A DNA stretch of 64,000 bases, from positions 62 through 64,061 of the forward strand of contig DASSGK010000574.1 in the NCBI GenBank assembly GCA_035693505.1. The letters are read 5' to 3'. The stretch is from Vicinamibacterales bacterium (lineage in GTDB: Bacteria > Acidobacteriota > Vicinamibacteria > Vicinamibacterales > CAVVIG01). This document shows, one piece after another, positions 52,621 through 54,179 of this stretch. Position numbers and translations under genes: made by a program. The notes under the pieces were generated by a model that saw nothing but the letters and a program-made list of their open reading frames with translations, did not search any database and had not been told where the DNA came from. The first letter of the stretch is position 1, and each line of letters starts with the position of its first letter.

Positions 52621-54084
52621 TTACGGCTTCTTCGGCGTCGGAGGAAACACCGGCACACCAAGCTTCTTCACTGAATTCGGCAGGTTCGGTGGCCCGGGTT
52701 TCGGTGGGATCGGTGGGGGCACGATGCCCTGAAGGCGATTGAACCCCACGTTGAGCCTCGCGGCGACATCCGGTCGAAGCGTCGCTGGCGTCCCCGGATA
52801 GGGGATGGCCACTTTCTCGAAGAGCCGAATCTCTCCCTTGCCGGCCTTCGCTGGAGGCGGTACTTCGTTCGGTTGTTGTGCCGCACCCTTGACTTTGATG
52901 TTGACCGAGCCTGGAGCCTCGGAGTCCACGTTGAAAACGATCCCGTTGGCCACGGTCGCGATCGAGGCATCTTCGATGGTCATGCCCCCGGCCGGAATCA
53001 GCTGAATCTGAATCTTGCCGTTCTCCTGGCTGTGGGCCAGTCTGCCGAGGTAGTGATCGCGGCAGACTTCGAGTCCGATGGTGATGCCACTGATAGTAAA
53101 GATCGATCCGCCCACCAGTTCAGACACCGACTGGTGCGTGGCGTTGAGAGGGTTATAAATCGGATCCTTCCTCAGTCCATCAGGTTTGACGGATGTTTCC
53201 GTGGCGCCGGCAATTTTTGCCTTCGCGGTGCTGTCGTCGTACCAGGCGGCTCCAAGCTCTGGCGCTGATTTTTCCCGAAAGTCGACGTGCGACGGGAACT
53301 CTTTCTCGACGATGAACTCGTGACGTTCGGACTGCTTGGGTCCGCCCTTCTGGACCAGCGCAAAGTTTTCCAGCAGCAGGCCCTCTTTGACGTTCTTCGC
53401 CCCGGTCGGCTTTTCCTTGATCGTCTGAAACACAGCGGTCCCGAGCACGAACAGCCAGTCGGCGTACCTGCCCTTGGCGGTCTCGGTACGCATGGTTGTG
53501 AGAATGTCGCTCAACCACCCGATGTCCTGGTAGGCCCCGTAGCTTCCGCGGAAGAAGAACTCCGGCGCGACAAATATTTTGAGAATCTTGCTGTTTTCGA
53601 TCGCGCCGATCTTCCTGGCCGCGAGATAGGCCAGATGCTTCTGGTAGGCCACGTCGATCGCTGATGTCAGCGCTGCGCATTTGTTGGCGATATCGGCTTT
53701 CTCGTTCTTGACGCGGTCCTTCGCGTTTTTGGGGGACGTGTAGGTGTCGATCGCGATTTTGTAGCCGATGCACAGCGCATCCACGTAGCGGTGCAGGCCC
53801 CACTGGTCCTGCTCCTTGAGCGTCCTCAGCACCACTTCTTCGAGCGCCTGCATTGCTGCCAGACGACCGGTATTGGCGCCGCGATCGATCTTATCGGCGG
53901 CCCAGGCCGCGATCGCGTTCTTGAGTTCCATCAGAATGTTGAGCCTCGACATGTCCAACACCTGGTGGTACCGCTTGATCAAGTCGTCGATTTGCACCAG
54001 CAGCGGCTTCTTCGCTCGAGTCTCCATGAACGACGAACTCGCCCTTTGCCACTCTGGCCACGTCGGAATCTTGTTGAATGTCAT
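52621..54084 (-). CDS. Orphan protein: helical N-domain + nitrilase-superfamily-like (E-K-C) domain + proline-rich tail
   Basis: ATG 54084 is preceded by GGGAG with a 6-nt spacer. 487 aa. Motifs are 'KIFVAPEFFFRG' (E175), 'FIVEKEFPSH' (K261), 'IGLEVCRDH' (C341) and 'IQLIPAGG'. The tail is 'PPPIPPKPGPPNLPNSVKKLGVPVFPPTPKKP'. Visibly A/T-richer and Lys-rich compared with its neighbours. Confidence 0.7.
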   Translation of the reverse strand: MTFNKIPTWPEWQRASSSFMETRAKKPLLVQIDDLIKRYHQVLDMSRLNILMELKNAIAAWAADKIDRGANTGRLAAMQALEEVVLRTLKEQDQWGLHRYVDALCIGYKIAIDTYTSPKNAKDRVKNEKADIANKCAALTSAIDVAYQKHLAYLAARKIGAIENSKILKIFVAPEFFFRGSYGAYQDIGWLSDILTTMRTETAKGRYADWLFVLGTAVFQTIKEKPTGAKNVKEGLLLENFALVQKGGPKQSERHEFIVEKEFPSHVDFREKSAPELGAAWYDDSTAKAKIAGATETSVKPDGLRKDPIYNPLNATHQSVSELVGGSIFTISGITIGLEVCRDHYLGRLAHSQENGKIQIQLIPAGGMTIEDASIATVANGIVFNVDSEAPGSVNIKVKGAAQQPNEVPPPAKAGKGEIRLFEKVAIPYPGTPATLRPDVAARLNVGFNRLQGIVPPPIPPKPGPPNLPNSVKKLGVPVFPPTPKKP

Positions 54085-54179
54085 GTGGTGCTCCCGGTAA
54101 ACAGCTGGCAGCGCGGGCGATTCTACCAAAAGACCTGGCGCCTCTGAGTCACACGTTGCCGACCGTGATCCACTCGGCC

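Follow-up and report, generated by a model that had tools for sequence, protein, structure and literature searches.

The window analysed here is a 64,000-nucleotide stretch of DNA from a Vicinamibacterales bacterium (contig DASSGK010000574.1). We focus on one of its genes, which occupies positions 52621..54084 of the minus strand (487 codons plus stop), and we use the name FAM for the unannotated protein family to which its product belongs. The window FAM is a cytoplasmically made protein of 487 amino acids (aa) without a signal peptide. On the basis of predicted structures it is assigned to the nitrilase superfamily, and a subset of its relatives is found inside type VI secretion system (T6SS) gene clusters.

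The limits of the gene are given by its translation, which yields all the motifs quoted in the first-pass annotation of this DNA together with the proline-rich tail, and by a 97%-identical homologue (P0001) of the same length and start. The start methionine is also the position at which the alignment of 46 homologues begins. A longer open reading frame (ORF) of 777 aa, which the first-pass annotation had already set aside, is rejected as the true gene: it is a read-through rich in guanine and cytosine (GC) that overlaps the Pfam-confirmed MFS gene, and the 97%-identical homologue is likewise 487 aa long.

A GGGAG ribosome-binding site, read directly from the sequence at 54091..54095 (minus strand), is located 6 nucleotides (nt) 5' of the ATG at 54084. 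Further upstream, 95 nt separate the stop of the MFS gene from FAM, and this spacer contains TGGTAGAAT, a putative extended -10-like box at 54120..54128 (minus strand). The box had been taken as a sign that FAM has its own promoter. It is indeed present, reading from 54128 to 54120, but it has no -35 partner and a consensus promoter scan of 52400..54400 reports 0 promoters, so that a separate promoter is possible but unsupported. At the other end of the gene, the stops of FAM and of an alpha/beta-hydrolase (epoxide-hydrolase-like) gene converge at a distance of 5 nt. Neighbours confirmed by Pfam comprise a Beta-lactamase family protein, the alpha/beta hydrolase, the MFS protein, an Amidohydro_2 protein and a CCP/MauG protein. 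FAM itself has no transmembrane segment: the 19-residue Kyte-Doolittle maximum is 1.64 and falls within the beta core.

Predicted fold and active site

The structure of FAM was predicted with AlphaFold2 (AF2). The full-length model, based on an alignment of 46 sequences, has a predicted local distance difference test (pLDDT) score of 89.4 and a predicted template modelling (pTM) score of 0.88, and a model of residues 96-436 alone, based on 58 sequences, reaches 91.4 and 0.92, respectively. Foldseek searches of the PDB with the two models returned 115 and 118 matches at E <= 1e-3. The top 50 matches of each search belong exclusively to the nitrilase superfamily, with probabilities of 0.99-1.00 and E-values ranging from 7e-7 to 5e-5 (best values 5e-6 for the full-length model and 7e-7 for the domain). 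They include the formamidase AmiF of H. pylori and of B. cereus, a Nesterenkonia amidase, Lnt and D-carbamoylase, and further N-carbamoylputrescine amidohydrolase, beta-alanine synthase, the glutaminase domain of NAD synthetase and vanin-1. The first-pass annotation had suggested, from the order of three residues, a likeness to the carbon-nitrogen (CN) hydrolase superfamily; in the fold search, the alpha-beta-beta-alpha architecture of that superfamily is the sole type among the top 50 matches.

At the level of sequence profiles, by contrast, CN_hydrolase (PF00795) could not be matched significantly: Pfam, NCBIfam, sequence searches of the PDB (single-sequence phmmer and profile hmmsearch, which returned nothing relevant) and hhalign were all negative. 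For hhalign, a CN-hydrolase profile combined E. coli YafV with eight relatives and with five PDB sequences, the YafV homologues being close relatives that add little diversity. Against this profile FAM scored E = 0.15, and E = 0.12 when a 150-sequence family profile was used; the global alignment is meaningless. Overall, FAM is very probably a divergent nitrilase-superfamily enzyme, and we count the fold assignment, made on predicted models, among the demonstrated results of this analysis.

The three residues that had been singled out as a Glu-Lys-Cys triad, E175, K261 and C341, are invariant in both the 46- and the 58-sequence alignment, in which mean column identity is only 21-23%, and they occupy the canonical strand-end and elbow positions. 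More specifically, Glu175 (codon 53560..53562, minus strand, in APEFFFRG) is the predicted general base and follows strand 167-172; Lys261 (53302..53304, minus strand, in IVEKEFPSHVDF) is the predicted catalytic lysine and follows strand 256-260; and Cys341 (53062..53064, minus strand, in GLEVCRDH) is the predicted nucleophile, placed between strand 334-338 and helix 342-345, at a strand-Cys-helix nucleophile elbow of the AF2 model with Asp343 at C+2. Also invariant are P174, F176, R179, N240, S265, D268, E339 and D343. Of these, Asp268 lies at K+7; YafV and the P. abyssi nitrilase have a Glu at K+7 to K+9, as judged by motif comparison only.

The canonical motifs, as taken from YafV and aligned PDB members, are vLPEmf, N...G...YdKxHLF...E and lvCYDlrFP, and the FAM counterparts FVAPEFFFRG, ENFALVQKGG...IVEKEFPSHVDF and GLEVCRDH run parallel to them; again by motif, the N240...K261 hairpin parallels N91...K107 of YafV. 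The best local hhalign alignment, which is not significant, places C341 on C141 of YafV in lvCYDlrFP, and an equally non-significant extended alignment places E175 on E42 in vLPEmf and N240 on N91. The distance between lysine and cysteine is longer than usual, as had been pointed out before, with 80 residues in FAM versus 34 in E. coli YafV; the insert consists of an extra hairpin and loops of lower confidence.

Strict conservation of the catalytic machinery argues that FAM is an enzyme of the thiol-acyl-enzyme type. In the catalysis that we infer, FAM would be a thiol amidohydrolase whose Cys341 attacks the carbonyl carbon of an amide (or related C-N) bond to form a thioester acyl-enzyme. Glu175 would act as the base, Lys261 together with Asp268 would stabilise the oxyanion, and water would then free the acid, the outcome being either deamidation or cleavage of an amide. 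With lower likelihood, the acyl group would pass to an amine acceptor, as in Lnt.

FAM can be divided into three parts. The N-terminal helical domain (N-domain) spans residues 1-95 (53800..54084, minus strand), with AF2 helices at 9-16, 27-39, 44-68 and 75-93 and the motif IDxLIxKYHQVxxMSxLNILxEL. The divergent CN-hydrolase domain of the alpha-beta-beta-alpha type, supported by AF2 and Foldseek, comprises residues 100-435 (52780..53787, minus strand), and the Pro-rich C-terminal tail, predicted to be disordered (pLDDT 55-73), comprises residues 436-487 (52624..52779, minus strand). Residues 1-165 had been described as all-helical, which the models contradict. They contain a beta strand at 102-109, which together with helix 121-156 forms beta1-alpha1 of the sandwich in AF2, and relatives without the N-terminus begin at about residue 100, where Y100 is invariant. 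Because the sandwich and the N-truncated relatives both start at about residue 100, we delimit the N-domain at about residues 1-95 and not 1-165. The tail carries two PxxPxK motifs, PPIPPK and PPTPKK, and its core 'SGTxP[IV]PPP[KR]P' is common to close homologues (>45% identity) and missing from distant ones.

Family members and their genomic neighbourhoods

The gene had been called an orphan, which it is not. A 90%-clustered database of 5.8 billion proteins holds 94 homologues of FAM at E <= 1e-3, all of them 'hypothetical' and none with a Pfam domain, and HMMER, run exhaustively over 1.84 billion representatives, finds 841 clusters at 50% identity. Genomes of GTDB, taken one per species, encode 257 relatives with a best identity of 54%. 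Their spread is patchy and includes Acidobacteriota, Alpha-, Beta- and Gammaproteobacteria, Myxococcota, Desulfobacterota, Verrucomicrobiota and others. The earlier statement that no described family has this architecture holds insofar as no curated family covers the protein, although a large uncurated family exists. In Pfam, FAM gives only a spurious 14.9-bit match to HL_N-beta, and in NCBIfam none.

A PADLOC scan of the protein and a Foldseek search of the FAM model against viral structures (BFVD) returned nothing. We considered FAM as a component of a defence system and rejected this candidate in view of the missing PADLOC match and of a single relative near a Pycsar locus; a phage origin was rejected as well. 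The relative in question (P0062, L168 6205..10341) lies directly behind a Pycsar-type pair, a Guanylate_cyc cyclase and a PycTM effector, within an island whose genes are unannotated.

Long relatives have the FAM domain placed C-terminally and carry no signal peptides. Four proteins of ~1000 aa (P0173, P0176, P0195 and P0226) contain it in their C-terminal half, have neither a signal peptide nor a Pfam domain, and share an unannotated N-terminal motif, '...LALYNWGT...E[IV]NRAL[IV]ELVGC...'. Other long relatives begin with HYDIN/VesB-type immunoglobulin (Ig), DUF1573 or CarboxypepD_reg modules, and one (P0147) has a Pfam double zinc ribbon. A separate subgroup (P0056, P0059, P0063, P0067, P0071, P0074 and P0077) is distinguished by an insert of 40-70 residues between two long core beta strands (alignment columns ~500-600), with paired CxxC-like cysteines that give it the look of a zinc ribbon.

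To describe the neighbourhoods, ORFs were called and clustered in 80 of the GTDB loci. A hidden Markov model (HMM) of the N-domain was compared with the 5025 neighbouring ORFs; the sole matches are FAM proteins, at 38 of the 80 loci. With the HMM matching nothing but FAM proteins, there is no support for the idea that the N-domain is a delivery module shared and swapped among proteins.

We regarded a locus as T6SS-embedded if tblastn with hallmark proteins detected at least two hallmarks within 10 kb. This is the case for 10 of the 80 loci, which come from Acidobacteriota, Pseudomonadota and Verrucomicrobiota, and at least one hallmark is present in 13. Pfam identifies TssA, TssB, TssC, Hcp, TagJ, TssE, TssF, TssG, TssK, ClpV, VgrG and PAAR around FAM. 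The Pfam gene orders are ClpV-FAM-VgrG-PAAR (L033), ClpV-FAM-DUF6931-PAAR-VgrG in Methylomonas methanica (L036), ClpV-VgrG-PAAR-FAM (L063) and TssA-FAM-TssB in Crenothrix (L026); in Roseateles (L037) the order is ClpV-FAM. A Bryobacteraceae locus (L014) reads TssF-FAM-orf392-TssG-VgrG, and its FAM is 45% identical to the window protein over the full length. On a metagenome contig (JGI 3300047160; P0052 and P0054), the arrangement Hcp-Hcp-FAM-475aa-FAM-Hcp-374aa stands directly behind a full T6SS operon. The T6SS linkage is almost confined to FAM copies that bear the N-domain: 9 of 38 such copies are T6SS-embedded compared to 1 of the 42 without it (Fisher p = 0.005, uncorrected for phylogeny).

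Several of these clusters contain further genes that deserve mention. On JGI 3300047160, the two FAM paralogues and three Hcp genes are intermingled, and the 475- and 374-aa proteins are unannotated. In L014, the 392-aa ORF between FAM and TssG (11354..12532, plus strand) has no Pfam match; its N-terminus (…DKHPLRQIHNALLTYWNLPKM) resembles the N-domain motif of FAM, with an hhalign E of 0.52, and it could be a second effector or partner. The DUF6931 protein between FAM and PAAR in Methylomonas (L036 11933..12544, plus strand) may be an adaptor. In Sulfotelmatobacter, the ORF immediately upstream of a T6SS-linked FAM (L046 8483..9523, plus strand) weakly matches the glutamine deamidase toxin Burkholderia lethal factor 1, with an E of 0.0015 that falls short of the cut-off. 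At two unrelated loci, including L054 (12789..14405), genes for PKMT-type protein-lysine methyltransferases (MethyTransf_Reg plus PKMT winged helix) adjoin the T6SS-linked FAM.

A different setting is found at 12 loci from Burkholderiales and Myxococcota (among L066-L085), where FAM lacks the N-domain and belongs to a conserved operon, for example L067 4834..17098. The operon consists of two unknown ORFs, a ~995-aa protein, a protein with a phage-tail-collar domain, FAM, an FkbM methyltransferase and a GT2 glycosyltransferase, with a Ser/Thr kinase and an FHA protein nearby on the other strand. It has no PADLOC match, and the ~995-aa protein has no Pfam match. The remaining loci have no neighbours in common, and no metabolic neighbour is conserved across the 80 loci.

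Functional interpretation and rival explanations

The best structural matches are found among nitrilase amidases (AmiF, 2dyu; Nesterenkonia AN1, 3hkx; P. horikoshii, 6ypa; E. coli omega-amidase YafV). FAM shares with them the residue order Glu...Lys...Cys, a 'PE' after beta2, an Asn-hairpin-Lys element and a Gly-x-x-x-Cys-x-Asp at the strand-helix elbow. Unlike them, it has no detectable PF00795 profile similarity, superposes with template modelling (TM) scores of just 0.4-0.5, has 80 instead of ~34 residues between lysine and cysteine, carries an extra N-domain of 95 aa and the Pro-rich tail, and occurs in T6SS clusters or orphan positions, not in metabolic operons. The CN-hydrolase domain of Lnt (5n6h, 8b0o), also among the top Foldseek matches, shows that the fold is capable of acyl transfer via a Cys thioester, but Lnt is an integral membrane protein with 8 transmembrane helices, of which FAM has none.

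Amidases are known among T6SS effectors: Tae1-4/Tse1 are papain-like/NlpC-P60 peptidoglycan amidases, and Tse8 belongs to the amidase-signature family. As proposed for the FAM family, these proteins cleave amide bonds, and like its T6SS-linked members they are encoded in or near T6SS clusters beside vgrG, hcp or PAAR genes and lack signal peptides. Their fold and machinery are different, however, with Cys-His or Ser-Ser-Lys in place of Glu-Lys-Cys, and Tae effectors have adjacent Tai immunity genes, while no immunity gene is conserved beside FAM. Within the nitrilase superfamily, the branch of Nta1-type N-terminal amidases deamidates the N-terminal Asn or Gln of proteins; these enzymes are eukaryotic and cytosolic and are not secreted. 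Because Nta1 shows that the nitrilase fold can act on proteins, a protein-deamidase activity of an effector appears plausible. A full-text literature search found no nitrilase/CN-hydrolase T6SS effector or toxin, and a 2012 census of polymorphic-toxin domains does not mention the nitrilase fold. What the present analysis adds is the genomic setting of the relatives. The gene, the extent of its family, the fold, the invariant residues and the T6SS linkage of relatives are shown, while catalysis, secretion, the part played by the N-domain and the target are inferred.

Our reading is that FAM is a divergent nitrilase-fold cysteine amidase or deamidase and that it represents a T6SS-linked effector family of which the window copy is an orphan; we give this reading about an even chance of being right. 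That the window copy itself is a T6SS-delivered effector we rate slightly lower, just short of even. The N-domain-bearing subfamily would be T6SS cargo, its N-domain would serve for loading onto VgrG, PAAR or Hcp, and the gene in the window would encode such an effector as an 'orphan', apart from every T6SS cluster. That the position within the clusters varies and that paralogues occur suits cargo more than a core component. Variable placement next to VgrG, PAAR and Hcp, together with paralogy, many orphan copies and the C-terminal position of the domain in long proteins with Ig-like modules and no signal peptide, favours an effector over a core, accessory or metabolic protein. Since no immunity gene is conserved, the producer may lack the target, which could for instance be eukaryotic or lie outside the cell. 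A eukaryotic adaptor would be compatible with the conserved PxxPx[KR] motif of the tail, a speculation that we offer as a lead and not as a finding.

A number of observations speak against this reading. With T6SS core proteins as queries, tblastn finds no T6SS gene in the 64-kb window; ~85% of the relatives' loci are without T6SS genes within 10 kb, and the subgroup of 12 loci sits in its glycosyltransferase/methyltransferase operon instead. Nor is any small ORF within 350-400 nt up- or downstream of FAM kept across loci, which leaves no candidate for a conserved immunity protein; this speaks against an antibacterial toxin of the classical kind and would allow for a eukaryote-directed or extracellular substrate. 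A Pfam scan detects no known T6SS marker domain (PAAR, Rhs or MIX-type) in the FAM protein, which at 48-54 kDa is also large for cargo of the Hcp lumen. The N-domain correlates with T6SS embedding but does not belong to the described delivery markers; no other toxin was seen to carry it, and a database search with its profile returns only three short proteins. As for the enzyme, no sequence-profile method ties FAM to PF00795 (hhalign E = 0.12-0.15), and relative to nitrilase structures the TM-scores are just 0.37-0.53 with root-mean-square deviations (rmsd) of 7-10 Å. From these modest scores we take FAM to be a strongly remodelled version of the nitrilase fold.

Four other explanations were weighed. 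FAM could be a catabolic amidase of the ordinary kind that stays inside the cell and is not secreted, expressed together with the MFS gene upstream of it in a small hydrolase or xenobiotic-degradation neighbourhood. It lies 95 nt downstream of the MFS gene on the same strand, the pair is kept in a 94%-identical soil contig, the neighbours include hydrolases (Amidohydro_2, Beta-lactamase family, alpha/beta hydrolase), another relative adjoins an amidase-signature gene, and members of the nitrilase superfamily are mostly metabolic enzymes. MFS orthologues at 76-83% identity, however, keep the Amidohydro_2 partner and have no FAM downstream, and the 80 loci have no metabolic neighbour in common; moreover, an extra N-domain and a disordered Pro-rich tail are atypical for metabolic enzymes, and the enrichment within T6SS clusters would be left unexplained. 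We consider this explanation unlikely, although it is the strongest of the four. A position between core genes, as in TssA-FAM-TssB (L026) and TssF-FAM-TssG (L014), together with the missing immunity gene, could instead point to an accessory or regulatory enzyme that acts on the T6SS inside the producer, for example by modifying one of its components, the window copy being a relic or re-used. Such a role, which we regard as quite improbable, agrees poorly with a cluster position that is not fixed, with duplication behind Hcp genes and with long fusions that carry the domain C-terminally in the manner of a toxin module; most members have no T6SS nearby, which is unusual for an accessory of the machine and common for effectors.

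The remaining two explanations concern the chemistry and the fold. The protein might be an Lnt-like N-acyltransferase or transamidase that moves the acyl group off the Cys341 thioester onto an amine. Lnt structures are indeed among the top Foldseek matches (rank 3, E = 5.8e-6), and with a GT2 glycosyltransferase and an FkbM methyltransferase in the 12-locus operon, FAM may there serve in biosynthesis or modification. Yet the soluble enzymes AmiF and Nesterenkonia NitN score equally well or better and with higher TM, FAM has no membrane domain like that of Lnt, and hydrolysis is the default outcome in the superfamily, so that we hold this chemistry to be as improbable as the accessory role. Finally, the nitrilase resemblance could be convergent or an artefact of AlphaFold and Foldseek, FAM being no such enzyme, as a non-significant profile-profile comparison (E = 0.12-0.15), TM-scores mostly <0.5 and a high rmsd might suggest. 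This is very hard to reconcile with two independent high-confidence models that give >115 significant matches, the top 50 of each all from one superfamily, and with catalytic residues, a C+2 acid and a K+7 acid that are invariant and in the right structural positions; we believe it to be the case only with very low probability.

Returning to FAM as an effector family, a bolder version can be formulated, which we find rather doubtful in its entirety. FAM would be the first T6SS effector class built on the nitrilase Glu-Lys-Cys fold, would load by a dedicated N-terminal domain of four helices and would have no partner for immunity. As a deamidase of a protein or small molecule, it would act on targets absent from the producer, possibly eukaryotic (protist or fungal) proteins recruited via the C-terminal PxxPx[KR] motif, and it would be widespread in soil Acidobacteriota, Proteobacteria, Myxococcota and Verrucomicrobiota.

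If the effector reading is true, FAM would be an unrecognised and very divergent branch of the nitrilase superfamily that comprises hundreds of clusters and is covered by neither a Pfam nor an NCBIfam model. T6SS effectors would gain a catalytic fold new to them, in phyla and groups where little of T6SS biology has been explored (Acidobacteriota, Verrucomicrobiota, methanotrophs). Handles for testing it include the single nucleophile Cys341 and an N-domain whose presence predicts T6SS linkage. Culturable hosts are available for embedded copies (Methylomonas methanica R-45363 and Crenothrix) and for an orphan copy (Paraburkholderia sartisoli). If the fold assignment alone holds, it provides a useful annotation for a large family of 'hypothetical' proteins.

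Composition and history of the locus

The first-pass annotation had described the gene as compositionally foreign, rich in A/T and in lysine codons. In total composition it is an outlier: its GC content is 58.6% compared to a window mean of 64.5% (standard deviation (sd) 2.1), joint lowest with a region at ~38.8 kb, and lysine makes up 8.4% of the protein compared to 2.9% (sd 1.2, maximum 5.0%) in 31 other window genes. The GC deficit is found at codon positions 1 and 2 (GC1 0.58, GC2 0.42), whereas GC at position 3 (GC3) is 0.76 and within the range of 38 genes (0.80 +/- 0.04). The preference between lysine codons is slightly shifted, with AAA:AAG of 13:28 in FAM versus 109:374 in other genes. 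The DNA is thus A/T- and lysine-rich because the protein is unusual (Lys/Ile/Asn/Phe-rich) and not because its synonymous sites are foreign; the description stands for total GC and lysine and fails for synonymous composition.

The close relative mentioned above, a soil contig from JGI (L001), is 94% identical to the window at the nucleotide level across the MFS gene and FAM, and FAM keeps its position behind this MFS gene there. Beyond this one close relative, MFS orthologues of 76-83% identity retain the divergent Amidohydro_2 partner and lack FAM downstream, but synteny as a whole breaks off at that point. The flanks of FAM in the window contain no mobility genes; transposases adjoin two relatives elsewhere.

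The proposal of a horizontally acquired amidase- or deamidase-type effector has two parts that fare differently. The effector part is backed independently by the T6SS-embedded relatives. Horizontal acquisition is plausible, given the patchy phyletic spread and the transposases beside two relatives, but not demonstrated, and it is at most suggestive because GC3 is normal and L001 has the gene at the same site behind the same MFS gene.

Unexpectedly, the actual presence/absence polymorphism at this locus concerns the alpha/beta-hydrolase gene (51545..52615), whose GC content of 67% is host-like. Positions 51544..52582 of the window are replaced in L001 by 114 unrelated bp (3321..3434), which contain a GCGCTAAGCGCTGCGC palindrome and are all that separates the beta-lactamase-family gene from FAM there. 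Of the alpha/beta-hydrolase ORF, the final ~33 nt belong to sequence that the window and L001 share. A second compositional outlier of the window is the gene at 38405..40099 (plus strand), with a GC content of 59.4% and the lowest GC3 (0.70) of the 38 genes. Its sole Pfam match is a weak one to the PTPS_related membrane-protein family (E = 7e-6, below cut-off), and by its synonymous sites it looks more 'foreign' than the FAM gene.

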